Below are positions 41,786 through 55,372 of a stretch of 64,000 bases of DNA, piece by piece (positions within the stretch are counted from its first letter, which is position 1; every line of letters begins with the position of its first letter). The position numbers were made by a program, and so were the translations under genes. The notes below the pieces were generated by a model. The model was not told the origin of the DNA. It ran no database searches and saw only the letters and a list, made by a program, of their open reading frames with translations. This DNA is from an uncultured Gammaproteobacteria bacterium (GTDB lineage Bacteria; Patescibacteriota; Microgenomatia; Levybacterales; UBA12049): the NCBI GenBank assembly GCA_964474445.1, contig CAYYSJ010000002.1:53610-117609 (forward strand), given 5' to 3'.

Positions 41786-41822
41786 TTGACAATTGTTAGC
41801 AGTGTTGTTATATTAGTGCTAA
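41786..41822 (+). promoter_or_regulatory. hrcA operon promoter (TTGACA-17-TATATT) with a near-perfect CIRCE operator TTAGCAGTG-N9-TAGTGCTAA
   Basis: -35 at 41786..41791, -10 at 41809..41814. The CIRCE inverted repeat at 41796..41822 lies 20 nt upstream of the hrcA ATG. Confidence 0.85.
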
Positions 41823-46234: not shown

Positions 46235-46480
46235 CTAAATAATTTGAAGCAATAGCCAGAGGGTTAAGACCAAAGAACAAATTGTTATTCCAAACGCCAG
46301 TTTTACAAATAGCATTGCAAATCTTGGAAGATCTAGGGTAAAGGCTTCTTTTGCTTTATGAAGGCGAATTGTATAGAAGATATCATAAACAGTCATAAGA
46401 AAAAGAAGGAGACAGAATCCTAAGAGTAAGGATATTTTTGTGACAAGAAGAACATTAGGTATAAGAAATTCTCCTTCCAA
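46235..46480 (-). CDS. Small membrane protein (hypothetical; the start codon may be internal)
   Basis: 81 aa, two TM helices. Overlaps the upstream gene end by 26 nt, so the true start is probably a downstream Met. Confidence 0.25.
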   Translation of the reverse strand: MEGEFLIPNVLLVTKISLLLGFCLLLFLMTVYDIFYTIRLHKAKEAFTLDLPRFAMLFVKLAFGITICSLVLTLWLLLQII

Positions 46481-47063
46481 AAAAGATGGGATTTGGAGAT
46501 TGGTTTACATGAATGTATTCTAGTTCCTCATTGTGTGTTAAAAAGTTGCGAAGCTTTGCTGCAATAGCAGTTGGACGGGAGATATGGTACAACACAAATT
46601 CTTCTGAGTGTGTTGGTCTATCAAATGTCAGTGTAATATTACCAAAATCAAATATTTCCTCAAAAATACCGTTTTTATTCTCATCAATTTCAGTACAGCG
46701 GACTTGGTCAAGAAGAATGGTATTGGTCTTGTGAATAAAAAATGGTGAATATGAAACTTCAACTAATTTATGTGTCGTAACAACATACAAATGGAAATAC
46801 CAATCAACAATAATTTTTGTCACAGAGCTGAGAAAAAATGCAATAAGACAGAAGAGAAGCGGGATAAGAAAGTATAGAACATGAGTCATGCTCAAAATAG
46901 CAAGGGAAAGAGAGAAAAAGATGCTCATAGACAGAGTCAATAAAAAAAGAGGGGGGATAAGGAGTAGATAATGTTGCCTTGTATAGAGAATTACTCTTTC
47001 TTCCGGCAATTCAAGAAAATGCTGAAGTTTTTCTCTAAGAAAGGAATTATTTGTGCCTGCCAT
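46455..47063 (-). CDS. Membrane protein with a bacterial PH (bPH_2/YdbT-like) domain
   Basis: The N-terminal soluble segment is followed by two TM helices, then a C-terminal beta-rich domain (HKLVEVSYSPFFIHKTNTILLDQV..). Confidence 0.45.
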   Translation of the reverse strand: MAGTNNSFLREKLQHFLELPEERVILYTRQHYLLLIPPLFLLTLSMSIFFSLSLAILSMTHVLYFLIPLLFCLIAFFLSSVTKIIVDWYFHLYVVTTHKLVEVSYSPFFIHKTNTILLDQVRCTEIDENKNGIFEEIFDFGNITLTFDRPTHSEEFVLYHISRPTAIAAKLRNFLTHNEELEYIHVNQSPNPIFFGRRISYT

Positions 47064-48992: not shown

Positions 48993-49310
48993 ATGCAGTA
49001 TCCAGTACTTCTATTACAATTCTGGTATTTTACCGCACCAAAAGGTATTCTTGCCTATTTTGCATCGCTCAATGCCTCGTTTTTCCAACTGTTTTCAATA
49101 CCCCTTCTTTTACAAACATTCTTTAAACCATGGAAAAATGAGTATCGTGAGGGTTTGGTCGGTTTTTCTATTGCAATGGGAATTGTCGTAAAGTCTTGTG
49201 TTATCTTTGCTGGACTTGTCTTATTTGGTCTAGTACTTCTAGCTGAAACGAGTTTATTCATTGGTTTTCTACTTTGGCCTATTGCAACAGTCTATTTATT
49301 ATTTTTGTAA
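48993..49310 (+). CDS. Small membrane protein immediately upstream of the ClpB-like gene
   Basis: 105 aa, three TM helices. Its stop is 3 nt before the ClpB-like start. Confidence 0.35.
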   Translation: MQYPVLLLQFWYFTAPKGILAYFASLNASFFQLFSIPLLLQTFFKPWKNEYREGLVGFSIAMGIVVKSCVIFAGLVLFGLVLLAETSLFIGFLLWPIATVYLLFL

Positions 49311-49313
49311 TGT

Positions 49314-51674
49314 ATGGAATATTTTGCATCTTTGCACTATTTATATCGACAGTCCTGGGTAAGAATGGTAAGACTTCTTGTTCTGCTTGGGCTTAGTGGA
49401 TTTGTTTTACTTCATATACAAAACTTTGCATCAGTGAAACTTCTTCTTTTTATACTCTCACTATTTTTTATCAATGAAGTCTTCATTTCTTTTTCTCTCT
49501 CGCGAAAAATGCCCCTCTATAAAATTTCAGAAGAAAAAGATACTCTTCACAGTATAACGCTTGAGGCAATGGAAACATTGCTTCCCTCATCCACAAAAGT
49601 ATCTCTTACTAGGCTTTTAAAATACCCTCAAATCGAGTTTTTGTTGGGAAAAGCAATAATACAGAAAGAAGAAATACCCCTTACGGATATTGACAAAAAT
49701 GTACTTCTTGCAGAAGCGCGAAAACATGCAGAAACAGTGAAAGGAGCGTACGTTACAACAATAGATCTTGTTATTGCATATCTGCTTCTCACAGAAGACA
49801 AAACAAAGGTCTTGTTTAACAAGAAGATAAAAAAAGAAGATTTAGAAAATATAGCGTATTGGACGCATCTTCATTTTCCAGAGGAAGAACAAGAGAAGAA
49901 AACTCGAGTCACTTTTTGGGGTGAAGGTATAGGGCAATCCTTTGTATCAGGCTGGACTCTTGAAACAAAGAGGTACACCCAGGACTTTAGTAGTCTGGCA
50001 CTTCATAAGAAGCCTCTGCATGTAGAAAGAGAGAAAGAATATCGATTTCTTACAGAAACGCTTTCAAAAAAGGAGAATAACAATGTTATTTTAACTGGTG
50101 AAGTAGGAGCAGGAAAAGAAAGTTTGGTAGAAGCACTCGCAGTTGATAGCTTTATGGGGAGACTCAATCCTTCTCTGAACTATAAAAGAGTATTAGAGTT
50201 GTTGGTAGGATCACTCCTTGCGGGAGTTATGACCAAAGGAGAATTGCAAGAGCGGCTTGAGGCAATTTTACAGGAAGTATCTCATGCAGGAAATATTATT
50301 TTATATATTCCAGAGTTTCAAAGTGTTTTGGGATCATCATCTTTTGGAGTTGATATTTCAGATGTTTTAATACAATATCTTCGCAATGGCAAAATACCTA
50401 TTATCGGGACAATGACAGCAGCAAATTATAAATCATTCATGGAAAAAAGTACTCTGAGAGAGATGTTTGAGGTTATTACTCTTCCCGAACCCGATAAAAA
50501 ACAAGCAATGCAGATGCTCCTTCAGAAAGTATTTGAAATTGAAGAAAAATATCAGGTACACATTAGCTACCAAGCTGTTGTCACAGCTGTTGATTTGGCG
50601 GGCAAATATGTTGTGGACACAGTATTACCAGGGAATGCCGTTATCCTTTTAGAAGATACGGCGAATGCTATCGTCAATAAGAGAAAGGCAATGGTTGCTT
50701 CAGAGGATGTTATCGAAAAAGTAGAAAGTAAAACCAATATCCATGTGGGTGTACCCAAAAAAGCAGAAAAAGACCTCCTTCTTCATTTGGAAGAAAAAAT
50801 GCATGAGCGGGTTATTGGGCAGGATGGGGCAATTATTGCAGTTGCAGAAGCACTTCGTCGGCTTCGTGCAGGTATCGCGACGACAAACAAGCCTATCTCA
50901 TTTCTTTTCTTAGGTCCGACTGGTGTAGGTAAAACAGAAACTGCAAAAGCATTAGCTGCTTTGTATTTTGGGAAAGAGCAATCAATGCTTCGGTTTGATA
51001 TGAGTGAGTATAGTGATCCAACTGCGGTGATGAAGCTGTTAGGAGCTCCTGGGACAAGTCAGCGAGGAGAACTGACAGAGGCAGTACATGATAATCCTTT
51101 TTCCTTAATTTTACTTGATGAATTTGAAAAGGCAAATGAAGAAGTACTCAATCTTTTCTTGCAGGTTTTAGAGGATGGAAGACTCACAGATGGTCAAGGT
51201 AAGACTGTCTCATTTGCCAGTACGATTATTATTGCAACGTCAAATGCGGCGTCAGAGCTTATTCGTGAGGCTGTTAAGAAAGGAATAACAATCGATCACA
51301 CTTTTCAAAGCAAACTTCTTGAATTTTTACAACAAAAAGCTGTCTTCAAGCCTGAGTTGCTCAATAGATTTGATGCCATTGTCGCTTTTAGAAATTTGGA
51401 AGAGAAAGAAATAGAACAAGTGGTAAATCTGTTGTTAGCAGAGACGGTGAAAAAACTTGCCCAACAAGATATTACTCTTACCTATACGAGTGCAGTAGTA
51501 GATGCAGTGGCTACACAAGGGTATGATCCATCTTTTGGAGCTCGTCCTCTCAGACGATTTATTCAAGATAAAATAGAAGATATGCTTGCGAAAAAAATGC
51601 TCCAAGAATCTCTTTCGCGTGGTGCGAGAGTTACCCTCTCTGTGAATTCTTCAGGATCTATTATTGTAGGTTGA
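49314..51674 (+). CDS. ClpB/ClpC-like AAA+ chaperone with an N-terminal TM anchor and a degenerate first nucleotide-binding domain
   Basis: N-terminal two TM helices, then a Clp_N-like repeat. NBD1 Walker A reads GEVGAGKES and its Walker B reads ILYIPEF. NBD2 is canonical: FLFLGPTGVGKTETAKALA, LILLDEFEKAN, GARPLRR. No IGF/LGF ClpP loop was seen. Confidence 0.8.
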   Translation: MEYFASLHYLYRQSWVRMVRLLVLLGLSGFVLLHIQNFASVKLLLFILSLFFINEVFISFSLSRKMPLYKISEEKDTLHSITLEAMETLLPSSTKVSLTRLLKYPQIEFLLGKAIIQKEEIPLTDIDKNVLLAEARKHAETVKGAYVTTIDLVIAYLLLTEDKTKVLFNKKIKKEDLENIAYWTHLHFPEEEQEKKTRVTFWGEGIGQSFVSGWTLETKRYTQDFSSLALHKKPLHVEREKEYRFLTETLSKKENNNVILTGEVGAGKESLVEALAVDSFMGRLNPSLNYKRVLELLVGSLLAGVMTKGELQERLEAILQEVSHAGNIILYIPEFQSVLGSSSFGVDISDVLIQYLRNGKIPIIGTMTAANYKSFMEKSTLREMFEVITLPEPDKKQAMQMLLQKVFEIEEKYQVHISYQAVVTAVDLAGKYVVDTVLPGNAVILLEDTANAIVNKRKAMVASEDVIEKVESKTNIHVGVPKKAEKDLLLHLEEKMHERVIGQDGAIIAVAEALRRLRAGIATTNKPISFLFLGPTGVGKTETAKALAALYFGKEQSMLRFDMSEYSDPTAVMKLLGAPGTSQRGELTEAVHDNPFSLILLDEFEKANEEVLNLFLQVLEDGRLTDGQGKTVSFASTIIIATSNAASELIREAVKKGITIDHTFQSKLLEFLQQKAVFKPELLNRFDAIVAFRNLEEKEIEQVVNLLLAETVKKLAQQDITLTYTSAVVDAVATQGYDPSFGARPLRRFIQDKIEDMLAKKMLQESLSRGARVTLSVNSSGSIIVG

Positions 51675-52850: not shown

Positions 52851-54302
52851 ATGACAAATTTCCCACCAGTTGTATCAGTATTAGGCCATGTAGATCATGG
52901 GAAAACTACTCTTTTGGATGCTATCAGAAAAAGTAATATCGCCAATCGTGAACATGGGGGTATTACACAAAAAATTGGTGCATCCACTGTTGAAATAGTT
53001 CACGATGGAGAGAAAAGACTCATTACTTTTATTGATACTCCTGGTCATGAAGCATTTTCCTCAATGCGTAGTCGGGGTGCTCGAGTTGCAGATATTGGTA
53101 TTTTAGTTATTGCTGCTAATGACGGTGTGATGCCTCAAACAAAAGAGTCTATACAGCTTCTTAAAAATGCCCAAATTCCTTTTATTGTTGCCTTTACGAA
53201 GTCAGATCTACCAGAAGCTCAAGTCGAAAAAGTAAAACAACAGCTTTTAAAAGAGGATATTATCGTGGATAGTATGGGAGGGGAAGTCCCGTCTCTTGAA
53301 GTTTCTGCAAAGTCTGGTCACAATATAAAAGAACTCCTTGACCTTATTCTCTTAGTGTTTGAAATGAATTATACACTGGAACGTGAAACAGGAAATGTAG
53401 CCTCCAACAAGCCACTAGAAGCTGTCGTTATTGAATCCCGCCTTGATCCAAAGTCAGGAGCGAGAGCAACAATAGTGATAAAAAATGGCACCCTTTCAGT
53501 AAAAGATATGGTGGTTGCGAAGTCGACGACAACGTCAGGGCAAGCAACGGGTAAAGTGAGATCTCTTGTGACCGATACAGGTGCGATGGTGCAGTCAGCA
53601 ACTATTGGAGATGCAGTTGAAGTGTTGGGTTTTGAGGAAGTACCACCTGTTGGAAGTATTGTTAGAAAACAAGGAGAAGCAGCGGTTGGGTTGGTTGAGG
53701 CTCCTCATGTTACAAAAGCGAAAAAAGCAGAAGAAGAAAGTTTGTTGTCTCTTATTCTTGTTGCTGACACTCAAGGATCTCTCGAGGCTATTTTATATTC
53801 ACTTCCTGAAGGAGTAAATGTTATCTTGTCAAAGACAGGAGATGTGTCTGAAGCGGACGTCCTTATGGCTAAATCGGTAGGAGCGATTATCCTCACATTC
53901 AACCTCAAGCTCAAACCGGATCTTCAAAAATTTGCGTTGACTGAAAAAGTCTTACTCAAAAATTACACTATTATTTATGAATTACTGGATGAATTGCGAG
54001 ATGTTATGGAAGGGAAAGCATTAGCAGGTATGGAGCAGCTCTACGGTGCTGCACGTATTTTAGCCACATTTCCTTTTGAAAAGACTCAGGTTTTGGGAGT
54101 CAAAGTCCTTGAAGGAAGAATTGCAAAAGGTGATAAGATTCGTATCATGAGAGATGATATAGTAATTGGTGAAAGTAGTATTGTTTCTCTAAGACAAGGC
54201 AAAAACCCAACCTCAAAAGTGGAGAAAAATCAAGAAGCGGGTATTCTCATTTCTCCTTTTCTTGACTTTTCTGTAGGAGATGTGATACTATCTCATAGTT
54301 AG
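52851..54302 (+). CDS. infB: Translation initiation factor IF-2, minimal form starting at the G domain
   Basis: The start MTNFPPVVSVLGHVDHGKTTLLD is the P-loop at residue about 10. DTPGHEAF. FTKSDL in place of NKxD. The C-terminal beta-barrels are present. 483 aa. Confidence 0.9.
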   Translation: MTNFPPVVSVLGHVDHGKTTLLDAIRKSNIANREHGGITQKIGASTVEIVHDGEKRLITFIDTPGHEAFSSMRSRGARVADIGILVIAANDGVMPQTKESIQLLKNAQIPFIVAFTKSDLPEAQVEKVKQQLLKEDIIVDSMGGEVPSLEVSAKSGHNIKELLDLILLVFEMNYTLERETGNVASNKPLEAVVIESRLDPKSGARATIVIKNGTLSVKDMVVAKSTTTSGQATGKVRSLVTDTGAMVQSATIGDAVEVLGFEEVPPVGSIVRKQGEAAVGLVEAPHVTKAKKAEEESLLSLILVADTQGSLEAILYSLPEGVNVILSKTGDVSEADVLMAKSVGAIILTFNLKLKPDLQKFALTEKVLLKNYTIIYELLDELRDVMEGKALAGMEQLYGAARILATFPFEKTQVLGVKVLEGRIAKGDKIRIMRDDIVIGESSIVSLRQGKNPTSKVEKNQEAGILISPFLDFSVGDVILSHS

Positions 54303-54304
54303 TT

Positions 54305-55372
54305 ATGGATAATAACATGTTCCAGCGTCTTAAAGACCTGGTAACTCAACATCAGTCAATAGGTATCATTGTCCCTCCAAACCCAACCCATGATGAAATG
54401 GCCGCAGGTCTCGGTATGTATTTAGCGCTCAAACAAATGGATAAAAATGTGAGCGTTGCATGCCCAACAGATCCAACCGTTGCTATTTCATCCCTTGTTG
54501 GTATCGATAAGGTACAAAGAGCCTTATCAGGTGCAGGAGGAGATTTGGTTGTCACATTTCCTTATCGAGAAGGAGAAATTGAAAAAGTTTCTTATACTGT
54601 TGACAATGGACAGCTCAATATTGTTGTAAAAGCTGGTCAAAATGGCCTATCTTTCAGTCAGTCAGATGTCCAATTTCGACAAGGTGGAGCAATTCCTACA
54701 CTCATTTTTATGATGGGAATTACTGATCTGAATCAAATAGCAGGTGTTGTAAATCCAGCAGAAATGAGTGGAACAACAGTGGTAAATATAGATAACAAGC
54801 CAAGTAATACTGGATTTGGAGATGTCGTTCATGTTTCTCCAAGGTTCAGTTCCATTTCAGAAATGGTTGCAGATTTCTTGACCCTTCTTGAGCCACAAAT
54901 TGAATTAGATGTTGATACTTCCCAAAATCTTCTTTCTGGTATCCTATCTTCTACTGCTGATTTTCAAAATGGTAAAGGGAGTTATTTAGCGTTTGAAATG
55001 GCAGGTATCTTGATGAAAAAGGGTGCAGTTAGATCAGTGAATGGTAATTTTGCAAGTCCAACAACAACACAAATGCCAACAAATAACTATTTCCCACAAC
55101 AGCAGCCAGCGCCTGTTCAACCAGCTGTTCAACAATCAGTACAGCAACCCGTTCAGCAACCTCAACCGATGGCAATGCCTCAACAACCTGTGGCGCCAAT
55201 ACAACAGGCAACTGAGCCAATGCAACCTTTTGGTACAGTTCAGGGTGCTCAACCAGTTCAAAATGCACAACCTCAACAGCCAACTCAACCATTCGATCAA
55301 TCCCAGAATCAACAACAGCCTCCAGCTGATTGGTTAACTCCAAAAGTATATAAAGGAAGCACAGTAATCTAA
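54305..55372 (+). CDS. DHH/DHHA1-family (NrnA-like) protein with degenerate catalytic motifs and a Gln/Pro-rich C-terminal tail
   Basis: NrnA-like fold. The DHH motif is replaced by NIDNKPSN and GDTGRF by SSTADF. The C-terminal 110 aa are Q/P-rich low complexity (QQPAPVQPAVQQSVQQPVQQPQP...). Confidence 0.55.
   Translation: MDNNMFQRLKDLVTQHQSIGIIVPPNPTHDEMAAGLGMYLALKQMDKNVSVACPTDPTVAISSLVGIDKVQRALSGAGGDLVVTFPYREGEIEKVSYTVDNGQLNIVVKAGQNGLSFSQSDVQFRQGGAIPTLIFMMGITDLNQIAGVVNPAEMSGTTVVNIDNKPSNTGFGDVVHVSPRFSSISEMVADFLTLLEPQIELDVDTSQNLLSGILSSTADFQNGKGSYLAFEMAGILMKKGAVRSVNGNFASPTTTQMPTNNYFPQQQPAPVQPAVQQSVQQPVQQPQPMAMPQQPVAPIQQATEPMQPFGTVQGAQPVQNAQPQQPTQPFDQSQNQQQPPADWLTPKVYKGSTVI

Follow-up and report, generated by a model that had tools for sequence, protein, structure and literature searches.

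ClpB is coupled to DnaK by its M-domain, and FtsH has two N-terminal transmembrane (TM) helices. In type II AAA+ proteins such as NSF (in its second module, D2) and PEX1/PEX6 (in the first module, D1), one of the two stacked rings cannot hydrolyse ATP and probably serves in assembly, leaving the work to the other. The pore-loop tyrosines Y251 and Y653 of ClpB directly grip the substrate (PMC6546751). Torsin, an AAA+ protein related to Clp/Hsp100, has no aromatic pore loops and is membrane-associated via an N-terminal hydrophobic domain. Its partners are an AAA+-like domain that is catalytically dead and TM proteins (LAP1/LULL1), and in Torsin the loss of the aromatic pore loop goes with a non-threading, cofactor-dependent mode (PMC5425593). 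Here we describe a gene pair from a 64,000-nt stretch of Levybacterales DNA (contig CAYYSJ010000002.1, positions 53,610 to 117,609 of the forward strand; this whole stretch is referred to as the window) that encodes a membrane-anchored Clp-like ATPase of 786 aa (TM-Clp; 49314..51674, + strand) and, directly upstream, a protein of 105 aa (the small partner; 48993..49310, + strand).

Judged from their sequences, the two proteins are a conserved, previously undescribed membrane AAA+ module of the candidate phyla radiation (CPR)/Patescibacteria, and a variant of Hsp100. No Hsp100 family with a degenerate D1 was found in the literature searched, and a survey of CPR protein families lumps all Hsp100s into one cytoplasmic family (Meheust et al. 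2019, PMC6744442). An earlier note on this DNA, made without database searches, had given the positions and sizes of the two open reading frames (ORFs) and a 3-nt spacing between them; these are exact, as seen from the ORF list and from the junction sequence, TAA-TGT-ATG.

Fold and AAA+ modules of TM-Clp

TM-Clp is a Hsp100/Clp-like double-AAA+ ATPase. Pfam places AAA_2 at aa 527-689 (1e-45), ClpB_D2-small at aa 695-774 (2e-24) and AAA_lid_9 at aa 395-473 (6e-8), and D1 aligns to the D1 of ClpB at 4.7e-31. The closest sequences in the PDB are ClpB and ClpC, with E values of 1e-119 to 1e-113 (Thermus thermophilus ClpB, 1qvr, E=8e-119; Bacillus subtilis ClpC). An AlphaFold2 model was built from 96 family members, with a predicted local distance difference test score (pLDDT) of 85.5 and a predicted template modelling score (pTM) of 0.76. 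In a Foldseek search with this model, chains of ClpC, ClpC1, ClpB and ClpA were matched with a template modelling score of ~0.8 over ~580 residues, ClpC/ClpC1 being at the top. With two AAA+ modules and a ClpB_D2-small domain, TM-Clp belongs to the Hsp100/Clp double-AAA+ superfamily. Its NCBIfam scores lie below the family cut-offs for both ClpB (TIGR03346, 473 bits, cut-off 1232) and ClpA (TIGR02639, 407 bits, cut-off 993).

There are at least 240 homologs of TM-Clp. The 120 that were listed are mostly 780-810 aa in length, and the named ones are mostly from Candidatus Levybacteria or Patescibacteria. Across 96 sequences at ~48% identity, 66 columns are invariant. Motif states were also compared among 68 species-level orthologs and with a soluble Hsp100 paralog whose gene lies no more than 6 kb upstream of the pair in 25 of the 68 loci. 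This soluble paralog is 35-40% identical to TM-Clp and carries the motifs GEAGVGKTA, ILFIDEIH, ERRFQ and GAPPGYVGYEEGG.

The ATPase site in D1 of TM-Clp is degenerate. Its Walker A motif, GEVGAGKES (50097..50123, +), keeps the glycines and the Lys of the P-loop and has Glu in place of the Mg-coordinating Thr/Ser, and in its Walker B motif, ILYIPEF (50298..50318, +), the Mg-coordinating Asp is replaced by Pro. When aligned with HMMER to solved ClpB and ClpC, GEVGAGKE stands opposite GEPGVGKT and ILYIPEF opposite ILFIDEL without a register shift, and in the AlphaFold2 model the Walker B strand (aa 328-332) ends at P333. Together with the alignment to the same-genome paralog, these results bear out both substitutions that the earlier note had proposed, and they refute the objection raised there that the Walker residues might be shifted but present. 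The note had called the Walker B Asp catalytic, which needs correction: this Asp coordinates Mg2+, and the catalytic residue is the next Glu, kept here as E334.

The P-loop glycines of D1 are invariant in the 120 homologs and the Lys is near-invariant (Lys in 107, Arg in 12), while the Walker A Thr/Ser position is occupied by Glu in 70, Thr in 20, Ser in 10 and Asp in 9. The 68 orthologs have at this position, residue 269, Glu in 30, Thr in 17, Ser in 7, Lys in 5, Asp in 3 and Ala in 2, compared with Thr in 24 of 25 soluble paralogs. At the Arg-finger position, TLREMFE (50451..50471, +), both Arg residues of the canonical ERRF are gone, REM standing opposite ERR; among the residues listed for the 68 orthologs, Arg is found at neither position, whereas the soluble paralog has RR in 25/25. 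The sensor-1 Thr is kept. The Walker B Asp has given way to Pro in 118 of the 120 database homologs and in 64 of the 68 species-level orthologs, and it is kept in 25/25 soluble paralogs; the alignments thus indicate that degeneration of D1 is a family trait under selection, not chance or a one-off. Because the soluble paralog of the same genome has canonical motifs, the differences belong to the TM family alone and do not stem from an alignment error common to the lineage. Residues 269 and 334 also covary: Glu at 269 goes with Glu/Asp at 334 (26/30), and Thr/Ser at 269 mostly with Asn, Asp or Gln, which may mean that there are two alternative arrangements of the degenerate D1 pocket.

The ATPase motifs of D2 are canonical. 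The Walker A motif GPTGVGKT (50913..50936, +) is present as LGPTGVGKT in 67/68 orthologs, and the Walker B motif ILLDEFEK (51108..51131, +) as [VI]LLDEFEK in 68/68. The sensor-2 motif GARPLRR (51537..51557, +) lies inside ClpB_D2-small, as seen in Pfam, PDB and paralog alignments. The sensor-1 Asn and the Arg finger R685 are canonical as well, R685 being invariant within NRFD. Alignments to ClpB/ClpC and to the paralogs thus agree with the earlier reading of GPTGVGKT, LLDEFEKA and GARPLRR as intact.

A trait that had not been recognized earlier is the loss of the pore-loop tyrosines from both rings. The D1 pore loop reads AGVMTKGEL (50220..50246, +), with MTK opposite KYR, so that the tyrosine is replaced and the loop holds no aromatic residue; an aromatic residue is found at this loop in 0/68 orthologs. 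The D2 pore loop, GAPGTSQRGELT (51042..51077, +), is shortened and lacks the aromatic-hydrophobic GYVG motif, the shortened GAPGTSQRG standing opposite GAPPGYVGYEEGG in the alignments to solved ClpB and ClpC. The D2 aromatic is present in 2/68 orthologs, compared with 25/25 of the same-genome soluble paralogs, and the loop typical of the family in the 120 homologs is GAPPGEGDERGE. We also considered an acidic D2 pore loop as a specificity determinant and rejected it; the net charge is -1.8, compared with -2.0 in the canonical paralog, and only the aromatic loss differs.

TM-Clp has no M-domain: ClpA aligns to it in one stretch, the alignment to ClpB breaks into two blocks on either side of the M-domain, and the lid in the AlphaFold2 model holds no coiled coil. 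The spacing from the D1 sensor-1 strand to the D2 P-loop is 172 residues in TM-Clp and 180 in the soluble paralog, neither of which has an M-domain. The ClpP-docking tripeptide [LIV]-G-[F/L] is likewise absent from TM-Clp, where the region reads KKGITID with a loop of ~6 residues. The tripeptide motif occurs in 1/68 orthologs, there outside the loop position.

Membrane hairpin, small partner and their pairing

TM-Clp begins with a TM hairpin (49353..49499, +) formed by TM1 (aa 14-33) and TM2 (aa 38-62), with a short helix ahead of it (aa 2-12) in the AlphaFold2 model. Hydropathy places the two segments at aa 15-33 and 44-62, and the modelled helices have pLDDT values of 87-93, so that both methods support the two N-terminal TM helices of the earlier note. 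The hairpin is kept family-wide, with near-invariant Y11, R20, E55 and F57. Two hydrophobic segments above threshold are found in 70 of the 120 homologs, one in 33 and none in 13, the last of which have truncated starts. A mis-called start, which the note had named as a way to refute the hairpin, was rejected. The TM region is conserved at the protein level, Met66 is not conserved, and the small partner is fused upstream in some genomes; in homologs of only 736-750 aa, the called start is a Met within TM2, which marks these, and not the gene in the window, as cut short.

The hairpin is followed by a helical N-domain (aa ~70-190; 49521..49883, +) that may be a divergent form of Clp_N. The model has 8 helices here (aa 77-187), and in a profile-profile comparison with hhalign the domain matches Clp_N repeat 2 of the soluble paralog with a probability of 85% (E=6e-6). 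Pfam Clp_N (PF02861) gives no match to TM-Clp at E<=0.1, and the domains precomputed for the 120 listed homologs do not include it. The description of this region as a Clp_N-like repeat is thus supported in part, by the profile match and the helices but not by Pfam. Between the N-domain and D1 lies a family-specific linker insert, FWGEGIGQSFVSGWTLETKR (aa 201-220; 49914..49973, +), in which G205, G213, W214 and T215 are invariant in the family; its pLDDT is 64-75. The insert is a candidate contact site for a membrane partner or a client. Its pattern, GEGIG-x3-V-x-GWT-x-ETKKY, is nearly invariant and is not found in the soluble paralog in the hhalign alignment.

The small partner is predicted to be an integral membrane protein and belongs to an unannotated family. 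It has 224 homologs of ~105-111 aa, all unannotated and with no Pfam domain; Pfam searches of 104 and a further 24 family members gave only scattered, chance-level matches, and a profile search of 1.84 billion representatives gave 77 matches, all short. Thirteen residues are invariant (W11, S35, T42, F44, P46, K48, N49, E50, Y51, R52, L55, K67 and P96), and the invariant or near-invariant alignment columns at aa 42-60 define a signature motif, TFFKPWKNEYREGLVGFSI (49116..49172, +). Conserved positive charges are concentrated at residues 9-52. The C-terminal region (aa 67-105; 49191..49307, +) is hydrophobic, with hydropathy peaks of 2.72 and 2.21, and contains conserved charged residues, namely K67 (100%), D74 (94%; Gly in the window copy) and E85 (98%), as well as P96. 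The protein had been described as having three TM segments, a doubtful count because the first hydrophobic segment scores low (1.45) and carries conserved Lys/Arg family-wide. In an AlphaFold2 model of a natural fusion, the C-terminal region is one long helix of moderate confidence. The protein may cross the membrane once or three times. We considered whether the small partner is a duplicate of the N-terminal membrane segment of TM-Clp, with which it shares a YFxSLN-like string, and rejected this at a hhalign probability of 16%.

A genome scan with the signature-motif residues as patterns, using one genome per GTDB species, identified relatives of the small partner in 179 genomes. Eighty loci were retrieved, 68 of which had enough downstream sequence, the other 12 being cut by contig ends. 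A TM-Clp gene lies directly downstream of the small partner in all of the testable loci (68/68). The unfused pairs are mostly spaced within +-10 nt (57/63), and 20 of these have a 4-nt overlap. In five genomes (L033, L055, L068, L078 and L085), the small partner and the ATPase are fused in frame, as they are in a database protein, P0120. The order in the fusions is small protein, one TM, N-domain, D1 and D2, with the small protein taking the place of TM1. The 68/68 pairing, the five in-frame fusions and the 13 invariant residues establish the 105-aa protein as a real and conserved partner, as had been supposed. Because natural in-frame fusions of this Rosetta-stone kind occur, there is strong evidence that the two proteins would form one membrane module. 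If the ATPase is cytoplasmic, the fusions would place the C terminus of the small partner on the trans side, which would require an odd number of crossings.

A divergent tier of small proteins (120-141 aa; 70 homologs, including Peregrinibacteria and Peribacteraceae) shows the pattern WWY-EAP, a version of the signature motif that reads FS-P-LL-T-F-PW-R, and a hydrophobic C-terminal region in which a Pro is conserved. A Clp-like ATPase of ~800-823 aa directly follows the divergent small gene in 4/4 contexts, one of which, L087, is interrupted by an assembly gap. Hydrophobic helices at the N terminus and canonical D2 ATPase motifs are present in these ATPases as well, and GYVG is missing (one has GYAE). 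The D1 sites read GRRGSGRW/VIRD, GAGKTT/LDDA, GVGRLG/IDGL and GAGKAA/IDNI, and all are without D1 Arg fingers. A D1 that is differently damaged in each lineage, combined with a constant D2, is consistent with relaxed selection on catalysis by D1 and with a strongly selected D2.

Genomic context and neighbouring genes

The flanks of the pair differ by lineage (groES-EL; ribosomal protein genes; dnaK and nusA), and only the pair itself is conserved. In Levybacteria, the pair lies between the dnaK-dnaJ operon and nusA, often beside the soluble Hsp100. None of the loci examined has a protease gene linked to the pair. One Levybacteria lineage carries, just downstream of TM-Clp and convergent with it, a gene for a 587-aa single-AAA protein (PF00004; L002, 8438-10201, -; L003, 7807-9570, -). 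A role of the pair in a defence system was rejected: PADLOC gave partial, generic D2 matches only (PDC-M37B, DolB) and no match to the small partner, and the context is a housekeeping one.

The composition of the window (~34-41% GC) and its gene content, which includes a short IF-2, PilO, MurJ and hrcA-grpE-dnaK-dnaJ, point to a genome of the Patescibacteria (CPR). A tblastn search of the 64 kb with the soluble paralog matched the TM-Clp gene only, revealing no canonical Clp paralog, and Pfam scans of ORFs of at least 150 aa revealed no ClpP or FtsH protease domains. In the 253-nt region upstream of the pair there is no CIRCE/HrcA operator, only an 11-nt palindrome. A CIRCE-like operator, TTAGCAGTG-N9-TAGTGCTAA with 3 mismatches, is located at 41796-41822, 20 nt upstream of hrcA; no second copy with up to 3 mismatches was found in the window, including the region upstream of groEL (12072). 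Heat-shock control of the pair by HrcA/CIRCE was rejected, the CIRCE-like site being present only ahead of hrcA. Promoter and terminator scans gave site numbers no higher than in shuffled sequence.

Two membrane-protein ORFs of 202 aa (46455-47063, -; without a Pfam match) and 81 aa (46235-46480, -) lie between dnaJ and a Crp-family regulator, and they are not kept beside the module in the other loci examined. The IF-2 gene (52851-54302) encodes a short form of 483 aa without an N-terminal extension and is followed by a conserved DHH-like gene (54305-55372), the end of which encodes a long, low-complexity tail rich in Gln and Pro. Levybacteria loci share the gene order nusA-infB-DHH-like-rpsO-pnp.

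The soluble paralog is itself unusual. Its D1 pore loop reads SHR, with His for Tyr, though all of its ATPase motifs and the D2 GYVG are intact; it has no ClpB-type M-domain, and the ClpP-docking tripeptide ([LIVMF]G[FL]) is found in 0/25. Paralog ORFs lie 0.1-6 kb upstream of the pair in L010, L014, L016, L020, L022, L026, L029, L044, L045, L062, L064, L074 and others (coordinates in L002, 2690-5599; in L004, 1050-3632), and long N-terminal extensions, giving proteins of 1091-1513 aa, are present in L013, L017, L025, L039, L060, L069 and L083. ClpP is widespread in the CPR: supplementary data of the CPR survey list 1327 genomes with ClpP and only 33 with ClpX (Meheust et al. 2019, PMC6744442). 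The absence of the ClpP tripeptide from both Hsp100 paralogs of Levybacteria raises the question of which unfoldase partners ClpP there. Many Levybacteria-type contigs have been deposited under the names uncultured Gammaproteobacteria, Woesearchaeota, Sulfotelmatobacter or Methylomirabilota (L008, L010, L015, L018, L046, L013, L041 and others), and such implausible names suggest placeholder or wrong taxonomic labels in public records of metagenome-assembled genomes.

Mechanisms weighed for the pair

Among known systems, ClpB/Hsp104 is the best sequence and profile match to TM-Clp, with which it shares the order N-domain-D1-D2-D2-small, the D2 motifs and the absence of a ClpP loop. However, ClpB has an M-domain, two active nucleotide-binding domains, KYR and GYVG, and TM-Clp has a hairpin and an obligate small partner. 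By its motifs, TM-Clp does not behave as a ClpB with respect to the M-domain, two hydrolysis-competent nucleotide-binding domains, the pore tyrosines or the TIGR03346 cut-off. ClpA/ClpC/ClpE resemble TM-Clp in that ClpA aligns without an M-domain gap and ClpC/ClpC1 are the top structural matches, but TM-Clp lacks the ClpP tripeptide and the pore tyrosines, has a dead D1, is membrane anchored and scores below the ClpA cut-off. Torsin, like TM-Clp, is membrane-associated and has an active AAA+ module without an aromatic pore loop; it differs in having a single AAA+ module with an Arg finger supplied in trans from LAP1/LULL1, whereas D2 of TM-Clp keeps R685 and the inactive D1 is present in cis. 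In FtsH and Msp1/ATAD1, as in TM-Clp, N-terminal TM anchoring sets the entry face of the ring at the membrane, but each of these has just one AAA+ module, its pore loop is aromatic, and FtsH also bears an M41 protease domain; Pfam gives no Peptidase_M41 match in TM-Clp. NSF and PEX1/PEX6 are classical clade-3 proteins and not Hsp100s, are soluble and, unlike TM-Clp, have kept pore-loop-based substrate processing. The resemblance of TM-Clp to Torsin, FtsH and Msp1 is thus to be read as functional analogy only; with Torsin it is an analogy of logic and not family membership, no specific homology beyond Hsp100 having been shown.

The mechanism that we consider most likely, at about even odds, is that the pair remodels the membrane or acts as a switch there, driven by D2 and without threading, on a logic like that of Torsin. 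The two genes would encode one membrane-embedded AAA+ machine in several CPR/Patescibacteria lineages. If, as we infer, TM-Clp assembles into a hexamer, the N-terminal TM hairpin would hold the N-domain/D1 face against the cytoplasmic side of the membrane, and the small partner would pack against the hairpin, the two making up the membrane portion of the complex. D1, with no Walker B Asp, no Arg fingers and usually no Walker A Thr, would be a hydrolysis-dead ring, most likely a structural or assembly ring, for which type II AAA+ proteins with an inactive ring are a precedent; because the P-loop glycines and Lys and the sensor-1 Thr are kept, it may still bind nucleotide. D2 would be the only motor, and its ATP turnover would cause a conformational change that reaches the membrane partner or putative clients by way of D1, the N-domain and the hairpin. 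Since the pore tyrosines are lost from both rings and there is neither an M-domain nor a ClpP loop, the machine is probably not a processive threading unfoldase, a ClpB-type disaggregase or a protease feeder. A remodeller or switch seems more likely than a processive unfoldase because the tyrosines of ClpB grip its substrate (PMC6546751) and because Torsin offers a precedent (PMC5425593). Motif and TM evidence support the core of the earlier note, namely that this Hsp100 is anchored in the membrane and combines a pseudo-ATPase D1 with a D2 that looks active. Its guesses at function are weakened: a disaggregase or translocase by the counts of pore aromatics (0/68 in D1, 2/68 in D2) and the missing M-domain, and the feeding of a protease by the missing [LIV]-G-[F/L] docking loop and by the lack of a linked protease gene in the loci examined.

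Several observations weigh against a non-threading remodeller or switch. Levybacteria share a D2 pore loop of the form G-[EQ]-G-x-E-[RK]-G-E, and its conservation could reflect a functional channel with a different chemistry in which threading is not lost. The retained N-domain, together with the nearby dnaK/dnaJ and often a soluble Hsp100 paralog, is compatible with a role in proteostasis. The AlphaFold2 confidence for the membrane domain of the fusion P0120 is only 50-85, and this model was not relied on for topology or packing. No description of the TM-Clp subfamily or of the small partner was found in the literature searched.

The conserved levybacterial D2 loop, which is not drifting, also bears on the possibility that TM-Clp is a membrane-tethered unfoldase or extractase, a hexamer that pulls misfolded or mis-inserted proteins from the bilayer through its channel in the manner of FtsH/Msp1 and then releases or refolds them. 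By established Hsp100 architecture, a hairpin preceding the N-domain/D1 entry face has the right geometry, TM-Clp has kept an intact D2 motor and an N-domain, and the levybacterial position between the dnaK-dnaJ operon and nusA, often beside a soluble Hsp100, would suit such a role. We nevertheless judge it unlikely. The aromatics that grip the substrate in ClpB (PMC6546751) are missing in D1 (0/68) and almost always in D2 (2/68), the D2 loop is short and is not conserved in the other CPR lineages, no protease domain, ClpP loop or M-domain is present, and the pair has no CIRCE/HrcA operator upstream, though hrcA has one.

CPR bacteria depend on hosts for many compounds. This raises the possibility of an ATP-powered translocon or gate, in which six hairpins and six small subunits would form a pore coaxial with the AAA+ channel and D2 would drive or gate the cargo, by analogy with membrane-anchored ring ATPases of the Bcs1, FtsK and VirD4 types. 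The small partner is obligate and occasionally fused, its narrow family turns up in no other gene neighbourhood among the loci examined, and the named matches to the module all come from CPR lineages. Charges are conserved inside the hydrophobic segments (K67, D74 and E85 of the partner, and E55 in TM2 of TM-Clp). However, the pair has no linked genes for cargo, secretion or uptake, its context varies among dnaK/nusA, groES-EL and ribosomal protein genes, and the number of crossings is left at 1 or 3; resting purely on analogy, a translocon seems distinctly improbable.

TM-Clp might instead be a membrane anchor for the soluble paralog, recruiting active threading subunits to the membrane in mixed hexamers. 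A paralog with intact D1, D2 and GYVG within 6 kb upstream in 25/68 loci, 35-40% identical and with a common M-domain-less architecture, would be at hand for this, but the same identity is low for mixed-ring assembly, no paralog is found in the 64-kb window or in many other loci, Peregrinibacteria-type loci show no adjacent paralog, and the obligate small partner would be left unexplained, which makes an anchor very unlikely. That the pair is a decaying, non-functional paralog or a gene-calling artefact (a mis-called start or a spurious small ORF), as the degenerate D1 motifs that vary between lineages might suggest, appears effectively refuted by the conservation data, namely the essentially invariant D2 motifs (67/68 and 68/68), the 66 invariant columns over 96 sequences at ~48% identity, the protein-level conservation of the TM hairpin and the small ORF in 179 species genomes, and the 13 invariant residues and five in-frame fusions of the small ORF.

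Textbook Hsp100/Clp proteins are soluble threading motors, and the TM-Clp family would depart from them in being located in the membrane, in working with one ring and in having given up the threading tyrosines. An unannotated family of small membrane proteins is identified here as the obligate partner of this ATPase, which is supported by natural fusions. That D2 is conserved at ATPase grade in at least two deep lineages of the CPR, whose genomes are tiny, suggests that the function is probably important and mechanistically different. It is possible, if doubtful, that the pair represents a new class of bacterial membrane AAA+ machine, a Hsp100-derived, single-motor, non-threading ring with a small subunit that acts as a Torsin-like remodeller or an ATP-gated translocon; the translocon form, if true, would serve the host-dependent lifestyle of CPR bacteria. 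The family may thus provide a bacterial system for asking what a Hsp100-type ring does without pore-loop aromatics, a question that it shares with the Torsins.

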